NCBI GenBank assembly: GCA_001938485.1
Contig: MQRK01232050.1
Location: 14,961 to 69,152, forward strand
Direction of reading: 5' to 3'
From: Girardia tigrina
Lineage: Eukaryota
Length of the DNA: 54,192 nucleotides
Shown: positions 1,483 through 50,420 of the stretch, in pieces
Layout: every line of letters begins with the position of its first letter
How positions within the stretch are numbered: the stretch's first letter is position 1
Notes under the pieces: generated by a model
The model's database searches: none
What the model was told of the DNA's origin: nothing
The model's input: only the letters and a program-made list of their open reading frames with translations
Made by a program: the position numbers and the translations under genes

Positions 1483-3097
1483 TTAGGGTGAACCAAAGGT
1501 CTTTTCGTATTTTCTATTAAAAATTTAAGCATAATTTTACAACAAATAAAAAAAAACATTTAAGTTTCAAAGTAAAGGACATTTGAATCTATAGCTTGAA
1601 CCCATCTATGTGGAAGTTGTGCGATCCCGCAGCGGTACCAATCCTTGCTCTTAGAAGCGAAGAACTGGTGACACCCGTTTTCGACCTCGGCCAGATTATT
1701 GAAGCTGCGACCACGAAGAAAGTGTGCCATAGAGCGGAAAAGGTGATAGTCGGATGGCGCAAGATCCGGACTATATACTGGGTGTGGAAGAAGTTCAAAG
1801 GCGTCGAGATTTTTGATTTTTTCCTTTGTTTGTTTTGCGGTGTGCGGTTTTGCATTGTCCTGTTGTAGAAGAATTCGCTTTCGATTGATCAAAGCGGGGC
1901 ATTTCTCGCCAAGTGCCGCATACATTCGATCAAGTTGGGCACAGTAAAGGTCAGCGTCGATGGTACGACCATTTGGAACCAGCTCGAAGTGAATCACGCC
2001 TACGAAATTCCACCAAACACACAAAAGTGCCTTCCTTGAGATAACGATTTCGTTTGGCTACCGGTTTCGCCATTTGTCCGGGGTCCAACCATTGATTTTG
2101 TTGGTCTGGATTACTGAAGTGAACCCATTTTTCATCGAAAGTTACAAATCGACGGATGAAACGGTCATCGCGCGGATTTTCAAGCAATTTTTGTCAAGTT
2201 TCGAAACGCTTTTCGGATTGAATTTGTATCAATTCATGAGGCACTTCTCGACATCGTCTATTAACCTTGCCAAGAGCGTGAAGGTGTCGTACAATGGATG
2301 TTTGAGGAATATCGAGTTCGGCCGACAATCTGCGAGTACTTATTGACGGATTTGTCTCCAAGGCTTCACGAATTGCTCCGGAATCTGCGGTGATAAGTCG
2401 GCCTGAACGTGCATTGTCTCCGAGGTCAATGTCGCCTTCGTTGAACCTTTTGAACCAATTTTGTGCAGTACGATTTGAGACCACATTATCGCCTTCAACT
2501 TCGCATATCTTCTTTGTTGCTGCAGTTGCGTTTAATCCCTGTTTCCAGTAATGGTGTAAAAGAACTCGAATTTCTAAATTTTCCATGATTTTTCTAAAAG
2601 ACTATAAAAATAATATTAACGACTAATTAGAAGTTTGTCTATTTTATAAAGGAATACATGTTTAATTTTTAAATATTAATAATAATTATAAAGTATTTTA
2701 TAATAATAATTTTTTAACTAATATATATTCTAAATTAAAAATCTTTTAAAATTATGAAAAGATCTGAATGCTCTTAATTTGCATTTGGACATTTGAATAT
2801 TATTCAAACTGTCATAAATACTGCGTTAAAATTTCAATGCATAATATTAAAAAGAAAGTAAAATTTTGTTTTATTAAAGTATTGAAATTTTAAAAGTGCA
2901 GCGAATTCAAATCAAGCGATTTTTAACAATGGAACCAAAAAAAAATGCTCTGCTCTATCTATTATTATATTGTGATAGAGTAGTTCAAGAGCTTTAGAAA
3001 TACATAACACGTGTATATAAAATATCTTTATTTGGTAATAAGAAACAATTGAACAAAAAGACGTAGAAAATACGAAAAGACGTTTGGTTCACCCTAA
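1483..3097 (-). mobile_element. Full-length mariner (DD34D) with frameshifted transposase
   Basis: TIRs TTAGGGTGAACCAAA.GTCTTTTCGTATTTTCTA at both ends with TA TSD. Transposase 2586-1560 is split over 3 ORFs (VPHEL, TFDEKW, QDNAKPH, YSPDLAPSDY). Confidence 0.95.
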
Positions 3098-5899: not shown

Positions 5900-7036
5900 T
5901 TCAGTGTTACTTCGATTAACCACCGCAGAAATTTATTTTAAAATGTAGATTCAAGATGCGTTTTTTTCATTAATTAAAAAAAATAAAGTTAAAAAACCAA
6001 TAATTTATTTTAAAATACACAATATCACCAAGCTTTCAAATAGAGAGCAATCGACTTAGTAAAAATTAAGGGAAATCGTCCAGCAGCATTGTAGCTTTAT
6101 GTTGATGAAAAACGAATTCGAGAGTGGATAGAACAGTAAGTAAATGGACAGGTTTTATATCTGGATGCAGAAATTAGAACATGCAATACCACAAAGTGAC
6201 AACGTCTTCTTGATCTTTTTTCCAAAGCACCTACCATTATATCATATATATCATTTTTCGTCGCAAAACAATTCCTAAATTCAATCATCCTTCAAATGTC
6301 ATCGTCTCGGCAAATGAAAAATCATGTATGACTGCTTCAGAAACTCTACTTTGGCATGAAGCAATTTGGATGAAGCGAAAAAATGTAATGTTCAATCGTA
6401 AATCATTACTTATGCTCGATGGTGCTCCTGGTCACAAAACTGATAACGTCAAGGAACAATTCCATCGCAGTGGTACTTTTATGGCTCTGATTCCAGGAGG
6501 TCTAACTAAAAAACTACAAGTCTTAGATATCAGTGGCAATAAATCGTTCAAATCACGTCTTCGAAGCCGGTGGGAAAATTGACTCATAAACGGTTACAAA
6601 AATTACACAAAATCTGGAAATTTAAAGCGTGTATCATATGAAGAAATTACAAAATGGATTTCAGAAGCATGGAATGAAGTTCCAGTCTCAACAATTACAA
6701 GTGGTTTCAAAAAGACAACAAACAAGAAGACATTGATCAAGTCTTCGAAGAAGACACAAATGATAACGATGATGACATGGAAACTAATGATGAAGAAATT
6801 CGTGATAAACTCATTGACATTTTAACGGATGAGAGAAACTTTGGATGTGATGAGGATGATGATAAAGATCAGATTTAAGTTTTTATATTAAAATAAAAAA
6901 AAATTAATTAATTTTTCTAATTTCTTTACTAAGCCTCTACTAGATATTAAGCCTCTATTTTTTACTAAACCTCTACCAAGCTGAAAAAAAATCTTTTTTC
7001 TCTACTAAGCCTGAGGCTTATAACGAGATTTCAGGG
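5900..7036 (+). mobile_element. pogo/Tigger-like (DDE_1) transposon remnant
   Basis: LLMLDGAPGH...IPGGLTKKLQVLDISGNKSFK and WISEAWNEVP. Acidic tail, subterminal TACTAAGCCTCTAC repeats, terminus followed by TA at 7037. Left boundary uncertain. Confidence 0.8.
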
Positions 7037-14002: not shown

Positions 14003-15329
14003 TAATGTGTCCCATAAATAGTTTGGAAATTTCAAACGTGGTTATTTCAAACAAAATTTGCTTTTTTCGAAATTAGAAACATGTTCAGCTATAATAAAGT
14101 TTTTAATACAAATAAGCTTTAGATATTTCCACCATCGGCCTCAAAACACAAAGGACATCTCTCAATAACTGAGTTAACACAATTAGAAAAGAAACATTGA
14201 GAGAGTGCATGAAATTCATTTTGAATAGCAGTTTTTAGTTCTTCCACTGAATTATAGTTCTTGGCACTCACTTTCATTTTAAGATGGGGCCACAATCCAA
14301 TATCTGCTGGTGTCAAATCGGGTGAATATCCTGGCCAAGAAAAGGGAAACCCTCGGCTTATTACTGCATCTTCTTCAAATTCTCTTTTCAAAAACTCTTT
14401 GGTGTTCAATGCAGTGTGAGGCGTTGCCCCATCCTGTTGAAATATGGTTCTGCTGAACTTTTTGTGCTTCTTTAAGTTCGGAATTACATAATCCTTTAGC
14501 ATTGACTGATAGCTCTTAGCTGTGACTGTAGAATTAAAAAAGAAAGGTCCAATGCACACTCGTAATGAAACTCCCGCCCAGACCATTATTTTCTGGGGAT
14601 ATTGTTTCACAGGGAAACTGGGATTTGGAGGAGAAAAACTGCCTTTTGGTGCCCAAATCCTTTCGTTCTGCTTATTTAAATGAGCATTGCAGTCGAAGAT
14701 GGACTCATCAGTGAATAGGATTATGTCCAGGAAATCAGGATCTGCATCCACTTGTGCGAGGAATTTTTCACAAAATGCATGTCTTTCTTGTTGTGTGTTA
14801 GCAGAAACAAAGTATTCATACTTGTTTTTATATGGGAACATGTTAAGTTTGTGTGTTAAAATACGATGGACAGTAGACTTCGATAATTTTATTAACTGAC
14901 TTGCAGAGAGAACAGATTAAACTTATCCAATATCAGCTATGACATTAACATTTTCATCGTTCTCTTTTCGACAAGGAGGACTTCGTTTTTTTAATGAACC
15001 TGTTTCCAAGAAGTTCTTCAACAAATAATCCACTGTTGAATGGGAATGTTTCACAGAATTATTTGTTATGTTTTTCTCTGTGTAATACCCACGTATCGCT
15101 CCAGTAACCGACTCTGCTTGCAAGTAATAATGCTTCACTAACAGTAATTTATCGCTCAAAGGTAGATTCATATTTGTAAGTCCGCCGTAAAAGTAATAAC
15201 ATTGTCTCAACTATTTAAATAAAACTTTACTCTATGCTGAATCTAATAAAAATAAAATCGTTTTAAATTTTTTATTTTTTGAAGTGTAGGTATTATGTTC
15301 ATATTTCCAACTATTTATGGGACACACAA
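14003..15329 (-). mobile_element. rosa-like Tc1/mariner (DD42D spacing) transposon
   Basis: TIR TGTGTCCCATAAATAGTT. ORFs 15210-14923 and 14841-14119 with FTDES, FQQDGATPH and WPGYSPDLTPAD; 42 residues between the second and third D. Confidence 0.9.
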
Positions 15330-31070: not shown

Positions 31071-31141
31071 ATCTATTTCAAATAATAATTTGAAATTCTA
31101 AACCATGACAACATCAATAATAAAAAAAACTTGAAAAAGAA

Positions 31142-31178
31142 TGGCCAAGATGGGGCTCGAACCCACGACATTCGCGTT
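31142..31178 (-). tRNA. 3' half of a tRNA gene (probably Ile), pseudogene fragment
   Basis: Reverse complement AACGCGAATGTC-GTGGG-TTCGAGC-CCCAT-CTTGGCC-A gives variable loop, T arm with B box and acceptor 3' strand, followed by a T-rich terminator. The 5' half is absent. Confidence 0.7.
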
Positions 31179-31179
31179 T

Positions 31180-31410
31180 TTAGATATTTATATATCTCGT
31201 GTGGTTTCAATTTCTTTGTTACAATGCCATTCACTTTAATCAATTCACTGGATTCACAAGTTGGAAAGGAAATGTAAGCACACTTCTCAGGACGATACTC
31301 CATGCCACAATTTTTAGTAAAAGTGACGGCCTGATTGATTAGTTTTTGCTGATCACCGTCACTGTTTGAAACCAACGCGATATCATCAGCGAAAACCAAG
31401 ACCTGAACTG
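31180..31410 (-). mobile_element. Reverse transcriptase fragment of an RLE-type (NeSL/R2-like) non-LTR retrotransposon
   Basis: VFADDIALV...CGMEYRPEKC...YKYL corresponds to RT domains 5-7. Confidence 0.8.
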
Positions 31411-31670
31411 GGAATTGAAACTTTATACCAAATTTTATTGTCTTTACTTATTTTACAAGAAATTTCTATTTTTTAATTTTATAATTAAATATTAATTTTA
31501 AATGTTTTTTTATCTTTAATTCACAAATTTAAGAGGCATCAGAAATCTTTACATTGTATTTGAATATATAAATAAAATACTTTAATATAGATTGTTACAA
31601 AAAGATGCAAAATATATCTTAAGTTATCGTCGCTCTCGAATAAGTATGATAATCATATGATAATAAAGTA

Positions 31671-39142: not shown

Positions 39143-40599
39143 TATAAACACGCGTGATATTTTCTATTCGAGTACAAAGAACATGATCCAAGCAATCACA
39201 AATATAAAAAAATACATAAATAAAATGCAATTTGAATTGACACAGTTCACATAGGATTTCGGCCAAAAAAATACGTAACCGGGCTGAGAAAGAGTAAATA
39301 GAATGAAAAGAGATAATAATAGAACGAAGCACCCGTTTTATCGAACTCGAATTGCATGCCTGGCATCTTTGCAAATTAATAATATATACGTAAATATTAC
39401 GCCAAAAAAACAATAAATTCAAAAGCAAAAATACAACAAAAGAAAAAAAATCAACATACCATACCAATAAGTCAGCCACTCTGGCAAAACGGTGTGAATG
39501 GAACTTAATAGATTGTTATGTCGAAATTGTAAAAAAAAATAATTAAATAATCTCAGAATGGGGAAATTAAATTATACTGAACTTATTTGCCTCTACACAG
39601 GTTGTCCAGTACGTCCTTCGTTGGTCCTTTGAGGCTCTCCTCGAATGCAGAGATCTCACATATAAAGTATCAAAATCTCCAGTGCCCCGTAAATATGTAA
39701 ATAGAGAAAACTAAAATAAAAATGTACTCATCCATGTGAACGCTGAGGCCACCGGTCGGGCAATACTCGTCACCGGACCGAACCCGAAGGCGCTCTGAAG
39801 CGTGTACTACTGGTAGATACACGTAGAAGAGGCGCATCCACTCGCCTTAGTGAAGCATAATAAAATCAGATTGGGTGTCTACGGGTAGCCGTTCCGCGTT
39901 ATGAAGGACTGGGGGCTCAGAGTCATCAAAAATATTGTGAGTAGAAGGGAGCGCGACATGTAATAGTTACATGGTACACTACTAAAAATACATTCGAGTA
40001 TGTTGATTAATTATTTAATCATCTAGCAATAATTATTTCATACTCCAGTGATTCAACCTCGTTTAAACGAACAAATGTTTGATTCCCGCGATTTCGTTAA
40101 ACGATTATACGGTTCAATTCAAATACAAAAATTAATGACTGGTGATCGATTCTTCTCTTCGATTCAAAATTCTGAAATATGAATAATAAGATGACAAACA
40201 AAATGAGGTGCGTTCAAAAAATACTCAACCTTAGATGAAAGGAATTTCGGGAGCATATCTTACAACACAGAAAAAAATGCATAACTATCATTTTTCTCTA
40301 TACGTATTAAAAAATAAGACAAATTAAATTTAATAAAATTTCCAACCATTTAAAGGATGTATCAAATAATTAGCAAATAAAATATTATTATTTATGAATG
40401 AACCTTACGTTTGTTTGTCTCTGGATTTGGTTGTTTAATCTTGATAAGTTATTTTTGAGTGATGTGTAGCAGATATAATGTTCGCATAATCATTCATAGA
40501 CGACATCCTATTCGCATCCTACAACCATGACGAACATACACATTATGTAGTACACGACGTCTAAAACTTAATCTTTCATAGTTTAACAACGTGATCATA

Positions 40600-41000
40600 C
40601 AAGTCAACTGGAACAAATGTTCTTTTTTTAAATCGTCAAATCGTCCTCTGGCAAAACATTTCATATAATGGTCACTCATCCTTTTGAGAACGCCTCCAAT
40701 ACTTTAAATCCATAAATCTACTTTAAAAAATCTCAGACCTTTGCAGTTTACTAGGCATGAAAAACTACTACCGTGGATACATTCCAGAACGCTCTACACT
40801 TACAGCACCCTTATCTTCAATCAGTGCAGGAATAAAAAGACAGACCATACAATGGTGGAACGCCTTAAAACAAACATTCGATAACATTAAAACAGCTTTA
40901 CCCAAACCAAATGTTCTCTAGTACTTAGCAAATATTGTACCACTTGAACTCATCGCTGACTCATCAATCTCGACAATGGAGCAGTATTGCAACAAATAAT
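40600..41000 (-). mobile_element. Decayed Merlin/ISXO2-like transposase remnant
   Basis: SIVEIDES motif (~40980-40955) and GVLKRMSDHYM downstream. Confidence 0.45.
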
Positions 41001-41913
41001 CTCTGACTGAGCATAACCACTGGAAATTTTCACCTACAAAATCGAACAATAGAACAACGCTACTCCTTTTATAGCTGCTACACCTTGCTGTAAGTCACTT
41101 AAAACCCTATCTAATCAGACGCACATTCATAATGCTGACAGGCCACAGACCCCCGAGTTCACCTTTTGTCTATGAAAGACCCTTTTTGCGGTAGCGCTTT
41201 GGAAGCGTTTTAATATGGTCCCCCTACGAGGCACCAAAGAGGAGTGTATATTTTTATTGGTTTTATAAAATATTTAATACAGTATTTTTCAAGCTAATTC
41301 GTCAGTGTTGCCTGCAACACTGATGTAATATCTCAAAAAACACAGTAATAATAGTTGTATAAATATATGTACGTTCTATCACCTCCATATTCCAGAGATA
41401 TTTTTTTCTTTGTGTAATAAAACTCACATTCGTATCTTCCCATCGCATTCTTTTTCTCTGCACAAATTCCCGCTATAGCCAACGTTTATAGAAAGTTTCA
41501 CCATCCTGGGTTTGACGTTGCATTCCCATCTTGGATGACACAATCGAGATGATTTGATGTGACGGATTTTCCAGATTCCAAGATATTTTCATTGATATAC
41601 ATAGTACCCATTATTGTAAAAAATTGTGACACTCTAAAAAATTCATATTTTTTTATTAAATTTTTTTTAATTATTATTATAACTGTTATGCGAATTGGAA
41701 TTAAATTCAGAGTGGTCTAAAATTAGAAATTAAAAATCCAATTTCTACAATTAATTAAATTGGATTTAAAAAAACATTCTTGTTTAAATATTCACTGTTA
41801 TCTTGTAAATGTAATGCTATTAAAATTCTTACAAATTCTCTTCTCTGTTAATTTTTTCATGAGTGATTGTTACCGTGAGTTGATGACTCCGCAAAACGGT
41901 CGCCGCCTCAAAA

Positions 41914-42344: not shown

Positions 42345-42387
<43 letters not shown>

Positions 42388-42395
<8 letters not shown>

Positions 42396-43266
42396 TATAG
42401 TTGGTTTCATAAACCATAATATGACACTTGGCTACTCTGTCCTTTTGGATAAATTTCATCATGTCCTTTGGATCAGCAGAAATATAAATTGTTGGCGTTA
42501 CCAATTTCTTTATTGTCGTTTTGTCTCTTTTTTGATCTCGAGCATTTTCCTCGGCGTTATTCTTGAATATTAATACCGATATTTCCTTAAAACTCGTAGT
42601 TTTCAATAAGGTTAAGTGACATTCTTTTTTATTTATTGTATATAAAATTATTGATTCGCCAGTATCGCAAAAATCATCGTTTGCGATGCAAAATGGATGT
42701 GTCATCCTCTTTCTTGTAACACTATCGAATACTGCTTCGAATTTTCTTAATTCCACAATGTATTGTCGTCGTAAGACAACATTTTACCATTGTTTCCCCA
42801 CAATTCGCCAGTTTCTCTTGCACATCGTTCCAATCTAGACACCCATCCTTTTATATTAAAACCTACTTTCACTATTACTCCCACTTGAACGTTCATTTCG
42901 GTACCATCCAACTTGATTTTCTTTGCAATAAAAGCCTTGTCACATTGGATCATCGAAATTTGTATTGGATTAGGAGTAGGTTTTAATTGTGTGTCTAATG
43001 TTCCTCCACAATTGAATGCATTCTCCACATATTTAACTACACATTCTCTCGCTTCAGTGTATATAAAATCTGATTATTGATACACATTTAGTGTTTTATC
43101 CGGTAATGTTTCAATACTAATCGGACATGCTTCTGGGCATTCTTCTACATCGAGAAGAGAATATTTCTGTCCAAATTTCGGTTTCTCGCAATCATATGTG
43201 ATTATAGCATTTACACCTTGTAATGTTTCACACATCATAATTATCATTATTAATATCATTGGCCAT
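42388..43266 (-). pseudogene. Chuvirus-like (class III) envelope glycoprotein, N-terminal half
   Basis: Hydrophobic WPMILIMIIMM...GVNA|IITYDCEKP...YSLLDVEEC, then C..K...FNCG, C....DFCDTG and KCHIMVYETNYKGIYI. The Cys pattern matches what I recall of chuviral G. Truncated at a (TA)n run. Confidence 0.72.
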
Positions 43267-43339
43267 GAAGTTGATTTTTTCTTTTTGTCATTTTGACTGC
43301 ATAATTTTTCTTTGAAAGTTTTAATTATTATATATCTTC

Positions 43340-43610
43340 TTCGGAATCTTCGTTCCGATTTTCCTCTGCTCGGATTGCTTTTTGCCATCCTCCTTGTCTT
43401 TGAATCCATGGATTTATACATTTATTTATTAGTGCAACTGCCAATTCCACATAGGTATTTTGCGCTGTCGGTAAAAGATTATCTTTTCGCCATTATCTTT
43501 TACTGTAACTTTTTTCAGTAAACATTTAACAATATTTTCTGTTTCTGAATCCTCATTTTCATTTTTACCTTTACCTTTTGCAATTCCTTTTAATTGTTGA
43601 GCAATATTTT
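43340..43610 (-). pseudogene. Bcl-2-like domain (BH3-like plus BH2)
   Basis: BH3-like IAQQLKGIA at 43605-43579. After a frameshift, YVELAVALINKCINPWIQRQGGWQKAI (WIxxxGGW at 43408-43385). Confidence 0.7.
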
Positions 43611-45350
43611 GACTTTTGGTTGGATTGTATTCCAATTTAAAATTTTCATTTTCTGCTCTTTTAGGCCTTCTTCACGGTCTCCTTGTGGATGTCACTGCCT
43701 CATTGAACTTGACTGGTATTTCCTCACAGTCATCAGTTTCATCTTGATCAACATCATGTATTGGGTTTTGATCTACATTTATTTCATCATCGATTTCCTC
43801 TTCATCAGGTGGCTCCTCAAATTGACTAGGTTCTGTACCTTCTTCATCATCGTTGTATTCGTCGAGATCGACTTGTGGGAAATCCTGGAATCCAACTTTC
43901 TTTTCTGCCACTGAGCTTCTGTCTATAACAGCTACTGCTCGTACGATATTTATTCCGTCTTGTGCTAATCCAGCACATATTAGATGCTCCCTCGGATTCA
44001 TCATAATTTTATTGAAGAATAAATTAAGTTTGTCTAAAGGTTTCAGTGGTCGTCGCCACACTTTTTTAACGTTATTTATCACTATTTATTTTGGCGCAAG
44101 GATGCACCTGAAGCCGTAAGATCTCAGTATCATGCGGAAAATTTGTATCCGTGACTACGGAGATATCTATTGGCTTTTGCTTATTTCTATTAAGCACAAT
44201 ATATGAGCCATTTGTTTCAATTAATTTAATTATACCTGTTTCTCTCAACTTTTCATCTGCTATAGCTATCCTCAATTAAGGCATTATTTCTTTTAATTCT
44301 TCTCCTGTGATTTTGTCAATGATTCTATCGATCATTGCTTGAATTAGTTCATAGTTATATGGAGATTCTTTCAACTCCTTTTCTAATTGCTCAATTATAC
44401 CTTCAAATCTATTTGCCATTTCGACTGTGTCAATAGGCCTAATATTATTATTATATTTGAGTCTTTGTCTCTGAATTGTTAATTCTTCTACCTCATCTCA
44501 TAAATTGTCAAATATTTTTCTTTCTAACATCCCTAATGGCATGTATTTATCATTCCTAGATTCAATCATTTTTAATTTTTCGAAGTCTTCTTTTAATTTT
44601 TCAAACTCATCTCGTTCAATGCCGTGAATTGGCTTATTCTGTGCAAAATTATATTTATTTTTGTGACAAGCTCTGCTAGTATGCCCATATTTTTTACAAA
44701 TATAACATTGTATTTCGCCTTCGCTATTTACCGTTTCTCGTTGTGACTTTGATAAGTCCTTTGCTCATAATTATTTTTCTGATCTCCTCGATCATTATTT
44801 TGATAGTTATTCCTGCTTGTGTCTCTGTTAAAAATTCTACTCCTAATATTCCCTCTGTTATTTCCTCGTCCTCGGAAAGTTCTCGAATTATTGTTATTAT
44901 TTCTGTAATATTCCTGATTATTATCACTTCTACTGTTATTATTCTCTTGATAATTTCTATTATTATTTTGATAATTTTTTCTACTGTTTCCTCTTTAATT
45001 ATTGACCTTGTAATTATCATTATTTCTTTTATTGTTATTTTTATTATTATCATTCTGATAGTTGTTTTTATAACTATCATGCTGATAGTAGTTCGTGGAT
45101 CTGTTTTCTCGAACAAGTCCTCGTCGCATATTAAACCCTCGTTGGTTTACTGTATCTTTTGTTGAATTTCTATTACCATTATATTTTTTATTATCTTGTG
45201 ACGGGTTAAAAGCGTACAATTTCAAGTTCGGTGTTTTCCTACTCACATAGCTGGCTTCAATACACCTAGCTTTTTGTACCAGATCCTTCAAATCAACAAA
45301 ATCTACAATTGCTAATGCATTTTTAAATATTTGTGCACGCCACTCTGAAA

Positions 45351-48300
45351 CTGATCAAGTATTAAATTGTTTGGGCAAATCAGTCGAAATTGTTCTAACA
45401 GACAGCCATTGGTTTTTTTCTTGTGCGGGAAAAAGGCATATAAGCGAACTCAATGTCCAGAGATACGCTGTGAAAAATTTGGCCGCAATAGCATCTTGCA
45501 GCGGCATGCTTAGTGAACTCTAACTGACAGAATAATGGTTACGACAATGGAAGATCGAGAATGCAGTACAATGATCGCAAATTTAAAATCAACACAATGA
45601 ACGAAGATGAAGAACGCACATTTGATGATAGTGAAGAAAAAACGATAAAACGTACCCAAACGACTGGGCTCCGCCAATTAGGGAGTTGGTGGGAGCCAAA
45701 TGCCACTGACTTAAGAAGATAATTCCCACGGATTCGGATGCGAGCTACATGTGCGAACGATGAATAAGGTCTATGGATTTGTGAAAAAAAAGTTTGAGCA
45801 AGTATTCGGCATATACCCATAACAGCGAATTACATAACAGCGAAGACCAAAACAGCGATTTACTATCCAAATAGAAAAAAAGTCAATTAGATATAAAATT
45901 TTATTTTAAGGAAATTCCAACTTTAAATACACTGTAAAAATGCAATTGGTTTGCTTTAACTGAAAGAAATTCCACAAATAAACTCCATGACACCGATTTC
46001 ACCATTATCAAAACGCAGTTGCAAGTTTAAAATACGTTGACTTATTAAATTATACTTTTTATTTGTTTTGTTAATAACTTGCCCAGCATTAATTTGAGTC
46101 ATGAATGTTTCTGTAAATCCTTGTTCCTTTATTATGCATGATATTAAAACTTAAATATTCGGGTGATGCTTAACAACTAAATTATTGAAACTGTTGTGCC
46201 ACCCATCAACATCATTGTTAGTGCGCCGTTTGATGCCACACATATTCCACATTTCTTTTTTAATTCATTTCTTTTTTATTTTCGTTCTAAGTTCCTGATC
46301 ATTACTATAATCGACACTAAAACCTAATTTCTGAACTTGTCAAAACACCGCTTGGCAGAAATGAAAATAACAACCGCGTAGACGACTTTGCGGAAACTCC
46401 TGTTATAACGCAACTATTAAATCTTTCTCGAAATCCAATGTGATTTAATTTGGTGTAAGAATAAAAATTATGCTCCAGACATAAATAATATCTTACGAAA
46501 AACTGATGTGTATGTTTCAGCTTTTTAATCTATTATAATACAATAAATTAATGGAAGTACTTTACTTTGGAGAAGTGCATGGATTGTAAATATTTGTTTA
46601 TAAAATGGAGGTGCTACCCGAAATGTACCGTCCATGAACCAATGATTATTGCTGGATAACATTTGTAAATTACTTATTTTTCCAAGTAATATAATTGATT
46701 TATCCTCACTGATAAACAATAGGAATAATTGATCTGAAATAATTTGTGTCAATTGATCAGGTATGTGGATGTCATTTAAACTTTGAGGCAAAACCTGTAA
46801 TTTCTCGTGACGTGCTGGGTACAAAACGTTCTTTATAGATTTGAAAGCTAGAAATATAGCGGAAGCTAAAGTATTACTAGAAATTTCAGCTGCCGCATCT
46901 GAATATATAGTCGGATTACTGTGCGTTTCTGTTTTTGCCCGTTGCTTCATCTTACAAATAGTAGAATTTAAGATACTGATTTCTGGTGCTGGTGGATGGG
47001 AATGCCTTGTTTTTCAATCGGATGAGAGTTATCAATATCTGACCAAAGTCTTCCTTTTTAGAGTTGTTAATATTTCCATTTGCTTTTTTCACAAGTAAAA
47101 CTTAAAAATAATGTTATGAAGAAATCGAAAATTGAAATAACCTTAAAATTATATTATTAATAAAATATATATTATAAAAAATATGTTATTAATCAAATAT
47201 TATTTCTCCAAAAAATATCTTATTAATATAAATATTCTCCAATTTAAATGACAAAACTCTCATTTTAAAATGAAAATTTTCATTCGCTGTTTTGAGAATT
47301 CGCTGTTTTGTAATTCGCTGTTTTGAGACTTCGCTGTTTTGAGATTCGCTGTTTTGGGATTCGCTGTTTTCGGGTATAACCAAGTATTCTATGTTAATGC
47401 GTTGATTGAGGATCAGAAATCAGAGATATATTTTAGTAAAATGCTGGGGCGTCCAAGCGTTACAGTGGAAATTCAGGGGAAACAGTAGGAGTGTTTGTTG
47501 GATACAGGAGTACGTATTAATGTTATGAGTAAGAAGTATTATCAAGATTTGAATAATTTGGTGTTAGAAAAATGCGATATCAATTTGAGAAGTGCCAACG
47601 ATGGAAAATTGAAAGTATTGGGTAAAATAGAGGTAGAAGTAGATACATATCAGACAAGAAAAGTAGTACTATTTATTGTTGTGGAGAGTGTGGTTCCGGA
47701 ACTGATAGGAGGCATATTATTCATGAAAAATTTCGGTAATTCCATACAAAGAAACGAATCTCAAGACAAAATTGTATCAAGGGAAGCACGAGGAAATGTG
47801 TGTAATATCGAGGCGAAATTCGGCAGGGTGATAAGACCTGGAGAGAGATTAAAAAGAGCGTTAGATTGCATAGGTAAAGTAGATTTAAAACTGTTAGAGG
47901 TCATTCAGAATCAAGCAGAAGTATTCATGGCTGACAAATGGGATATCGGATGTACCAGTTTAGCAAAACATCCTATTAAGACGAATGGAGAGCCAATTAA
48001 TTTAAAACCTTTTCGACAACCAATGCATCTGGAAGAAAAAATTATGGAGACTATAAAAAAAGTGTATGATAATAATATCATCCGGAAATGTAATTTACCT
48101 TGGAACACACCATTAATTTGTGTGTGGAAAAAAGAGAAAAAAGATATTCGTATCTGTTTGTATTTTAAGTGTTTAAATGCAATAACGAAAAGACAAGCTT
48201 TTCCAATGCCCAATGTTGATGAGATGTTGGATGTTTCATGAGGTGCAAAGTATTTTAGCTCGATTCGCCTTGGAAATGCTTATTATCAGGTTGAGCTGGA

Positions 48301-50420
48301 CGAAGAATCTCAGGAGAAAACGGCCTTTTCTACAATGCAAGGATAATATTGTTTTACTCGTATGCCGTTTGATATAGCGGCTGCACCGGGAACTTTCCAA
48401 GAGATGATGACAAAGTATTCGGAGGAATCAAGGGTGTCATTGTATACTTAGATGATATCTTAGTATACACAAAAGATCGGGAGCAACACTATATTGTTTT
48501 GAATCAAGTTTTAGATAATATTAGGAAAGTAGGATTGCGGGTGAACCCAGAAAAATGTCAATTGTTGAAACGGTAAATCAAATTCCTTGGACATATAGTT
48601 AAAGAAGACGGTGTTAAGACGGACCCGTCTAAGATTGAAGCAATAAGAACGTTTGGGAAGCCAAAGTGTGTTAAAAACTTATGCAGTTTTTTGGGCATTT
48701 GTAACTATTATCGACGATTTATAAAAGAGTATACAAAGAATGCCAGAGTATTAGAACAATTATGCGGATGGAATAACAATAAAAAACTGATTTGGATAAG
48801 CGGACTAGAGTTAGCATTCAAAGAGATGAAGAATGCATTAATTACAAGCCCGGTATTGTGTTTTCCAGACATGAAAAGAGATTTTATTTTAGATACGGAT
48901 GCTAGTTTCAACACCATTGGAGCCGTGTTAGTACAGAAGGACGAACAAGGAATGGAAAGAGTTGTAGCTTATGGGTCGCGATCAATGAATAGCCACGAGA
49001 AGGGCTATTGTCTTACAAGAAAGGAATTGCTTGCCATGTATTATTTTTGTAACCATTTTAGACATTTTCTATATGGTAAATGGTTTACTGTGCATACCGA
49101 CCATAAGGCAATTACGTTTATACTGAACACTATTAAGTCAATTACATCGCAGTTTCAAACGTGGATTAACTATCTGAGCAGTCTGGATATGAAGTTAGAA
49201 TTTCGAAAAGGATCTTTGCACACGCATGCTGATATGCTTTCAAGGATGAATTGTGATACGTGTACTCAATGTTTGATGCAACACGAGGAAGCTAAGGAAG
49301 AAAAAAATCAAAACATGTGCACTGGATGTTGTATCAGAAGATGAAGCCACAAAGCCACTTTATTATCTCGGAAACCCATCGGATGTTGGCACACACGGGT
49401 GCAAAAAAAGTTGAGTATTATTTAAGAGACTCTAAGGATTTTGACAAGCTGAAAGGTAAGAACAAAGAGATTGTACGCAGTTGTGAATCATGCCAAAAGT
49501 ATAAAACATATATGGCAAAAACAAAAGAGAACACGATAAAATTAGAAGCTGCTGAGGTTTTTGAATGTATTTATGTGGATATTTGTTGACCGTTAAAGGA
49601 GACTTCTAGGAAAAAGAAATATATTCTAGGAATCATTGATCAGTTCAGTAAATACATTACGTTATTAGCAATATCGAAACAAGATGATGAATCGATAATA
49701 ATGCGGAATTGGATACTGAAATTTGGTTCTCCCAAGGCGATGAATGTGGATTGCGGTAAGGTTTTTGTATCAAAAAAGATGAAAGAGTTTGAAATTAGAT
49801 TCTCCAGCCCATATCACCATAACACAAACGGACAAATTGAACGACAATTCAGTACAGTGTGAGAATTGATAAATGTAATATTGCATGAAAGAAGAAGTTC
49901 AGACTGGGCAGAGATTCTACCAGAGATCGAGTTCTCAGTAAATACCACATTACAGACGACTCCTCGGGATGAGTCCAGCTGAAATCATTTTCGGAAGACG
50001 CATTAGCAGGGAGAAATTGGATGGAAAAAAATAGCAATACATTTCAATGTGAGCGGGACCAGGAGCCTTTCACTCGAAGACAATTCTTCTCAGGAGATGA
50101 TGTATAGGTAAAAGTAGAATCTAGAACAAAAGATCAAGGGAGATACGACGGGCCATATAAAGTCGTTCGAAAAGTACATGATAGAAGATATGTTCTTGAA
50201 GATATGTCTGGTAAAACATGTGAAAGAAATGTGGAGAAAATTAAAAAATTCTTGCGTGCGGGGGTGTAAGAGAGTGTTGTTGTTAATTTTTTAATTTTCG
50301 GAAATTAGAATTTTGGTTTTTAAAAATTTCGAATTATAATCGAAATTAAAAAAGATAATGGAAAATAGAATTAAAAAAAGAAAATAAAAAAATGAAAATT
50401 TGTTTAAATAACAAATTTAA
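45351..50420 (+). mobile_element. Gypsy LTR retrotransposon (5'-truncated, decayed gag-pol), interrupted by a MULE
   Basis: Degenerate double zinc knuckle at ~45410-45510, protease LLDTG, RT YLDDIL, RNase H FILDTDAS...HTDHKAI, HHCC and integrase core, PPT then TGTAAG LTR start at 50265. LTR end uncertain. Confidence 0.92.
45808..47380 (-). mobile_element. MULE/Mutator transposon
   Basis: 9-bp TSD CAAGTATTC (45799-45807, 47381-47389). TIRs built from tandem AAAACAGCGAA units. WFMDGTFRVAPPFYKQIFTIH and RTNNDVDGWHN. Confidence 0.93.

Follow-up and report, generated by a model that had tools for sequence, protein, structure and literature searches.

A predicted Bcl-2 fold in the polyprotein of compact Burro-like Ty3/Gypsy elements of Girardia tigrina, with a possible role in cell survival

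The locus considered here raises the question of whether a retroelement can carry a Bcl-2-like domain of its own and, if so, of what kind. The analysed stretch of Girardia tigrina DNA (54,192 nucleotides of contig MQRK01232050.1; hereafter, the window) contains on its minus strand, in a frame absent from the list of open reading frames, the string WIQRQGGW, which fits the BH2 pattern WIxxxGGW. A second string, IAQQLKGIA, lies in another frame 57 codons upstream, where about 55 had been estimated. The original prediction read the two strings as BH2 and BH3 of a Bcl-2-like domain limited to these motifs and carried by a retroelement. The pattern WIxxxGGW occurs once in the six frames of the window and in none of 100 local shuffles; 24 of the 100 shuffles contained the BH3-like half pattern, which therefore carries little weight alone.

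The window DNA is AT-rich, of animal type and full of repeats. Both strings belong to a dead internal fragment, about 3 kb of a multi-copy element (Table 1), whose edges are the points where blastn matches to other genomic copies (78-91% identity) stop. Many stops and frameshifts are spread over the fragment, gag and env included, and it has neither an LTR nor the pol of its own element. The element's 5' side is cut by a high-copy repeat (45372-47400) with no Pfam match at 1e-3, part of which is, judging by motif, presumably a decayed MULE transposase. Other decayed elements of the window (1560-2601, 6214-6582, 14119-14916, 31073-31447 and 48053-49344) comprise mariner/Tc1-type and DDE transposases, an RT fragment and an unrelated Gypsy RT-RNase H.

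Table 1. Features of the dead element fragment, in window coordinates.
Feature	Position	Strand	Basis
Dead internal fragment of a compact Burro-like Ty3/Gypsy element (3' part of gag to 5' third of env)	42381..45370	-	blastn, translation
Gag CCHC zinc knuckle	44666..44707	-	translation; zf-CCHC in sister copies
End of post-CCHC helical region and acidic linker	43672..44085	-	translation; no Pfam family
AT-hook-like motif (RPRGRPKR in sister copies; stop inside in the window copy)	43657..43686	-	
Extra amphipathic helix IAQQLKGIA ahead of the Bcl-2 fold; first half BH3-like, without Asp	43579..43605	-	
Helix 1 of the predicted Bcl-2 fold (BH4 position)	43507..43545	-	AlphaFold2 model, translation
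Deletion junction; helices 2-5 (BH3 and BH1 positions) gone from the window copy	43488..43508	-	
Helices 6-8 of the predicted Bcl-2 fold, including BH2 WIQRQGGW at 43385-43408	43373..43471	-	
Basic stretch and hydrophobic segment; putative Env signal peptide, possible tail anchor of the Bcl-2 domain	43206..43286	-	hydropathy; PF24664 begins here
Env, N-terminal third (fusion glycoprotein of Monjiviricetes type), interrupted by stops	42381..43205	-	PF24664, E 1.7e-4 (2.3e-87 in a related copy)

What had been taken for a simple frameshift near 43490 is in fact a deletion. In pairwise alignment all eight copies compared have additional bases at this point (196 in seven copies, 193 in one), and the bases lost from the window copy encode about 65 residues, corresponding to helices 2-5 of the fold described below. 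A DNA search of the same genome (1.43 Gb assembly) with the 501-base query 43250-43750 gave 76 matches, 40 of 232 candidates being scored; the window copy alone matched in one piece, and the other full-length matches were split at the deletion point. The layout with BH3 and BH2 only, as originally proposed, is confined to the window's dead copy, because helices 2-5 are deleted there, and sister copies encode the complete domain of eight predicted helices.

Protein searches of the genome revealed related lineages A (that of the window), A', B and C, as well as a distant pair, D/D'. The fold alignment comprised 40 stop-free copies of A, A', B and C chosen by a BH2-like pattern, so that BH2 conservation in it is by construction. 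With these copies and without rows of host Bcl-2, AlphaFold2 produced a model with pLDDT 83.6 and pTM 0.78 (pLDDT 75.6-83.6 over five models), with helices at residues 2-13, 20-38, 50-73, 79-86, 93-113, 115-132, 134-139 and 143-146 and an eight-helix bundle arranged around a central hydrophobic helix 5. A first model, built on 13 near-identical copies, had scored poorly (pLDDT 53); the Foldseek matches listed for it were all Bcl-2 proteins. When the model was compared with 48,161 chains by VIA-align, ranks 1-36 were all occupied by Bcl-2 folds, the first unrelated row having Z 5.3. The highest scores belonged to Bcl-xL (Z 12.7, rmsd 3.4, 129 aligned) and Bak (Z 12.7, rmsd 3.0, 133 aligned), followed by canarypox CNP058 (12.5), Mcl-1 (11.9), Bfl-1 (11.8) and BOK (11.7), with BFK at 7.5, BID at 4.9 and the poxviral A52, B14 and A46 at 6.1-7.5. 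As Z 12.7 is near the level that helical bundles can reach by chance, the case for the fold rests on the uniform Bcl-2 ranking. The matches that Foldseek listed from the PDB were likewise Bcl-2 proteins only (TM 0.65 to A1/Bfl-1, probability 1.0, best E 1.5e-3), and the named top rows from BFVD were viral Bcl-2 homologues; no match in either PDB or BFVD had E below 0.001. Thus, the AlphaFold comparison suggested with the original prediction bears it out in its main point: on the predicted structure, the element carries a genuine Bcl-2-fold domain of eight predicted helices.

The sequence support for Bcl-2 identity is weak but consistent. The Bcl-2 family profile PF00452 matched 30 of the 58 copies with E<=1, the lowest E being 7.3e-5, with no element copy reaching its cut-off of 31.4 bits (best 23.7 bits); a distant metagenome relative, P0008, scored 31.4 bits. 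A profile-profile comparison matched the host Bcl-2 genes (85%, E 6e-6), and a sequence match to Bfl-1 (E 0.11) extended across residues 53-149. With a single sequence as query, the sole phmmer match in the PDB was to BH2 (E 2.1), and word-index protein searches gave no match. The nearest clusters in the ESM Atlas were BCL2L15 (0.90), BID and BCL2L14 (range 0.86-0.90), to be taken as a lead only. The suggested likeness to Bcl-G and Bfk is only partial: it persists in this lead, but the model fits the structures of Bcl-xL and Bak better in Z than those of BFK and BID; the element domain is neither a canonical PF00452 member nor a Bcl-G/Bfk protein.

The BH2 motif itself is well preserved. Among 25 other copies that cover it (three duplicate loci were left out, and four copies fall short of BH2), WIxxxGGW is kept in 19, interrupted by stops in four and changed by substitutions in two; in seven of the 25, the stretch from IAQQL to BH2 is readable as a single stop-free frame. 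The predicted lack of an NWGR-type BH1 proved correct for the residues and wrong for the helix. NWG is absent and NWGR was not found, but sister copies possess a BH1 helix (INKNKIVTALLY in copy L029) that aligns to NWGRIVT of A1/Bfl-1, with N/E-K/R-I in place of WGR-I. The Arg position of this helix is occupied by Lys or Arg in all six lineages, whereas Trp and Gly are lost in every lineage, the Gly position being Asn, Glu, Pro or Ala. According to the available parts of two papers (PMC9027176, PMC7719400), the BH1 Arg pairs with the BH3 Asp, both Gly and Arg of BH1 are important for BH3 binding, and ORFV125 tolerates SPGR at lower affinity. In the element, the BH3 signature LxxxGD was found in no lineage, either in helix 2, the true BH3 position, or in the extra helix. 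The reading of IAQQLKGIA as BH3 was not sustained: this helix (model residues 2-13, pLDDT about 62) precedes helix 1, falls outside the part of the model that aligns to Bcl-2 structures (residues 18-151), and carries Lys or Glu at the Asp position. Lineages A, A', B and C retain its hydrophobic pattern and D does not; Asp is never present. The RGRP motif about 155 residues before BH2, which in the window copy (43657-43686) we take to be an AT-hook, is kept in A, A', B and the metagenome protein P0006, and is absent in C and D. The same module is seen in metagenome proteins, the order being Gag-CCHC-ubiquitin-Bcl-2 in P0006 and Bcl-2-signal-Env in P0007; another candidate relative, P0005, was a false match driven by repeats.

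Across the copies, the order of the element is capsid, CCHC, helical region, acidic linker, AT-hook-like motif, Bcl-2 fold, signal-like segment, Env (PF24664) and PR, followed by RT, RNase H, integrase, ankyrin and a second membrane protein, with a DEDD exonuclease ORF in one copy. Frame continuity was established piecewise: L109 reads from gag to Env without a stop or gap, L107 from BH2 through Env to PR, and L103 from Env through PR to RT. In other copies, the Bcl-2 domain thus lies in frame between Gag and Env, ahead of PR-RT-RH-IN. A hydrophobic segment follows BH2 by 38-47 residues and directly precedes the Env ectodomain in A, A', B, C and D; in P0007 the distance is 27 residues, and the single D' frame examined stops short of the segment. 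It is short, with a 15-residue mean hydropathy of 1.9-2.6 in most copies and 1.4 in one.

The sole copy with both LTRs measures 17.4 kb from LTR to LTR (2,046 N included). Its LTRs of 1.1-1.2 kb (L031:7797-8918 and L033:3960-5191) are 99.8% identical apart from a 110-base duplication and have TG...CA ends; the copy also has a target duplication of 4 bases and, behind the 5' LTR, a stretch resembling a TGG-type primer site. Stops have already arisen in its ORF. The PR-RT-RH-IN order, TG...CA LTRs, target-site duplication and primer site are those of Ty3/Gypsy elements, and the LTR identity together with the target duplication indicates that the compact family inserted recently. Several parts of these elements lie outside the gag-env region. 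A post-integrase signal-like segment together with a predicted membrane protein of type I, which may be another surface glycoprotein, was found at L033:3-1694 (+), L097:1-1242 (-) and L164:5549-9064 (+); in compact lineages it follows the ankyrin repeats, and it has no match in Pfam or the ESM Atlas. A second ORF ahead of the 3' LTR (L033:1604-3850, +) encodes a DEDD-type exonuclease (PF00929, E 4e-9) in one copy.

The same genome contains a giant family, D (L163:3434-10000 and L164:1-9064, +; 438 candidates at first look), with capsid, CCHC, ubiquitin-like, Bcl-2-like, Env, PR, dUTPase, RT, RH and IN, which fits the published Burro layout and has the BH2 variant GIQDLGGW. In compact elements the open frame runs for about 840-850 residues before BH2, versus at least 2,120 in family D. 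Pfam matched ubiquitin and dUTPase in family D, and neither BIR nor MATH; in compact copies no BIR, MATH, ubiquitin/SUMO-like or dUTPase match was obtained (E 0.05; E 1 over the PR-RT span), with the proviso that Pfam may miss BIR and MATH. The RTs of compact elements and family D are about 41-49% identical, and compact lineages form their own 100/100 branch in an RT tree that, with 14 of 16 rows and a single outgroup clade, leaves the sisterhood of compact and giant elements aside. One row previously labelled 'other' (L048) falls into lineage A in this tree. A giant-family fragment on the opposite strand (L004:1634-3243) begins just past the break of a compact copy inside the Bcl-2 domain, possibly as a nested insertion.

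The proposed comparison of dN/dS across copies revealed purifying selection on the Bcl-2 fold, with values of 0.27 among A copies, 0.13 among A' copies and 0.23 from A to A' (pairwise Nei-Gojobori over all alignable copies, including broken ones; the pairs are non-independent, a few loci share contigs, and dS between lineages is near saturation). The corresponding values were 0.21-0.25 for Env, 0.05-0.23 for the capsid and 0.38-0.46 for the acidic linker; the AT-hook with the extra helix had 0.13-0.29 within lineages, and all lineage pairs of the 40 selected copies ranged over 0.14-0.53. The Bcl-2 domain is thus constrained like Env and more strongly than the linker. Purifying selection implies some protein function and does not tell which one. 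Caspase-like DxxD sites in the acidic linker were considered and dropped, as they are not conserved between lineages.

The window fragment comes from an enveloped Ty3/Gypsy element, deleted and dead in this copy, whose Gag-Env-Pol polyprotein includes a predicted Bcl-2 fold. We give about an even chance to the reading that this domain is ER-bound and pro-survival in the manner of viral Bcl-2 proteins. The putative signal peptide of Env, which follows BH2 at a distance of about 40 residues, would enter the ER and, when cleaved from Env, would stay behind as a C-terminal anchor, of the kind usual in Bcl-2 proteins, for a Bcl-2 domain facing the cytosol. The element protease would free this domain from Gag. 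Its groove, in which the BH1 Arg position is Lys or Arg, would take up the BH3 helices of host proteins of the Bak/Bok type, delaying the death of particle-making cells. A pro-survival role is taken as the most likely one because the BH1 basic residue and BH2 are kept, the killer BH3 is absent, viral precedent exists, and the IAP of Burro1 is reported to be anti-apoptotic. The lost BH1 Gly, a helix 2 lacking LxxxGD and scores below the Pfam cut-off would argue against it; the anchor step appears weakened by the shortness of the segment, its moderate hydropathy and its 40-residue distance from BH2, the usual Bcl-2 tail anchor being nearer.

The loss of both Gly and Trp from BH1 in all lineages would also agree with a groove that is closed or self-filled, perhaps by the extra N-terminal helix, in a domain acting on innate-immune or stress signalling instead of Bak/Bax, as the poxviral Bcl-2 folds A46, A52 and B14 do. 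The extra helix retains a BH3-like hydrophobic face in four lineages and P0006 and, together with the AT-hook, has the low within-lineage dN/dS given above. However, the model fits the groove-open Bcl-xL, Bak, Mcl-1 and A1 better than the three poxviral proteins, the BH1 basic residue is retained, and family D does without the extra-helix pattern; we consider a closed groove unlikely. Quite unlikely, too, is a structural part of the particle, a helical membrane adaptor tying Gag to the ER via the Env signal segment and leaving cell death unaffected. Such a role would suit a domain made once per Gag, always placed immediately ahead of the Env signal peptide (in compact elements, in giant ones and in P0007) and kept where ubiquitin-like and dUTPase domains were not detected, but the hydrophobic segment alone would suffice as a tether, and lineages whose synonymous divergence is near saturation still share BH2 and the BH1 basic residue. 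Finally, a pro-death or pore-forming domain (Bak-, Bok-, Bfk- or tBid-like) that aids particle release is distinctly improbable, for although Bak ties for the best structural match, with BOK not far below, and the ESM lead points to BCL2L15, BID and BCL2L14, the BH3 Asp needed by killers is missing from both helix 2 and the extra helix, an enveloped element can exit by budding, and the single tested Burro accessory domain is reported to be anti-apoptotic (Lee et al. 2026, as cited in PMC13465017).

The pro-survival reading may be extended to a recently active enveloped clade, in a scheme that we regard as doubtful. One hydrophobic segment would serve both as the signal peptide of Env and as the tail anchor for a captured Bcl-2, making an ER-bound sink for BH3; the AT-hook and the pseudo-BH3 helix would be a cleavable autoinhibitory lid; and the survival module ancestral to the Burro group would be Bcl-2 and not IAP, acquired in a single capture and common also to distant elements known only from metagenomes. 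Capture of Bcl-2 is familiar among large DNA viruses. In the host genome, 13 Bcl-2-family matches above the Pfam cut-off (L049-L061) were found, some of them near-identical, with subfamilies that we take to include NWGR-type and Bok-like ones. The domain tree, whose branches are long, separates 16 element rows from 8 host rows with support of 93/94 (not starred) and points to no particular donor; the BH3 exon of host Bak was looked for and not identified. Contigs from RNA libraries cover the element family, including the part deleted in the window. The non-repeat flank 40022-41117 had zero depth in two RNA runs, and the adjacent high-copy repeat was covered too; RNA coverage is not counted as evidence of expression, since DNA carry-over is possible.

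Of the known systems, the cellular proteins Bcl-xL, Bak, Mcl-1 and A1/Bfl-1 share with the element domain the predicted eight-helix fold (Z 11.8-12.7), the BH2 motif WIxxxGGW and an aligned BH1 helix, but the element domain is 9-17% identical to them, lacks NWG and the BH3 Asp and lies within a polyprotein, and any anchor of it, unlike cellular Bcl-2 anchors, would be an Env signal peptide. The viral proteins CNP058, ASFV A179L, KSHV Bcl-2, BHRF1, BALF1 and ORFV125 resemble it in fold (Z 5.8-12.5), low identity and eroded BH motifs, but they are encoded by free-standing genes of large DNA viruses; moreover, KsBcl-2 keeps NWGR and ORFV125 keeps GR, so far as the available parts of the sources go, whereas the element domain has lost the Gly. 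With Bfk (BCL2L15), Bcl-G (BCL2L14) and BID it has in common the lack of NWGR and the nearest language-model clusters; it differs in a weaker structural fit to BFK and BID, in having no canonical BH3, and in that only the copy with the deletion shows a two-motif layout.

The closest system is Burro, a group of giant Gypsy-like LTR elements of planarians, compared here by published description and by family D of the same genome. The available part of one paper (PMC6431247) describes a BCL2-like motif in Burro elements and, between BCL2 and PR, an Env that matches mononegavirus fusion proteins, and calls for experiments. In the literature searched, a retroelement Bcl-2 was found only as this motif annotation, with no test of fold or function; compact families or the BCL2 domain may already be treated in Grohme 2018, in Lee 2026 or in the supplements to either, and the accessible parts of PMC8532177, PMC11410931 and PMC13238120 add nothing on BCL2. 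Both Burro (GYPSM1) and the compact element have Gag, a BCL2-like domain, a mononegavirus-type Env between gag and pol, PR-RT-RH-IN and ankyrin in one polyprotein. Burro differs in its size (more than 30 kb, with an ORF1 of about 5,000 aa, versus about 17.4 kb with 1.1-1.2 kb LTRs). Its BIR, MATH, ubiquitin-like and dUTPase domains had no Pfam match in the compact element, subject to the proviso given above. New here are the fold prediction, the selection evidence and a compact relative with Bcl-2 as the only apoptosis module detected. The RING-BIR (IAP) region of Burro1 is reported to protect stem cells from apoptosis (Lee et al. 2026, as cited in PMC13465017) and explains the stem-cell benefit reported for Burro1; the compact element would allow the function of Bcl-2 to be tested in the absence of IAP. 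If the domain does promote survival, the host has a retroelement family of high copy number that tunes cell death via the mitochondrial pathway. The element family of the window is compact, recently inserted and Burro-like, and is not a giant Burro.
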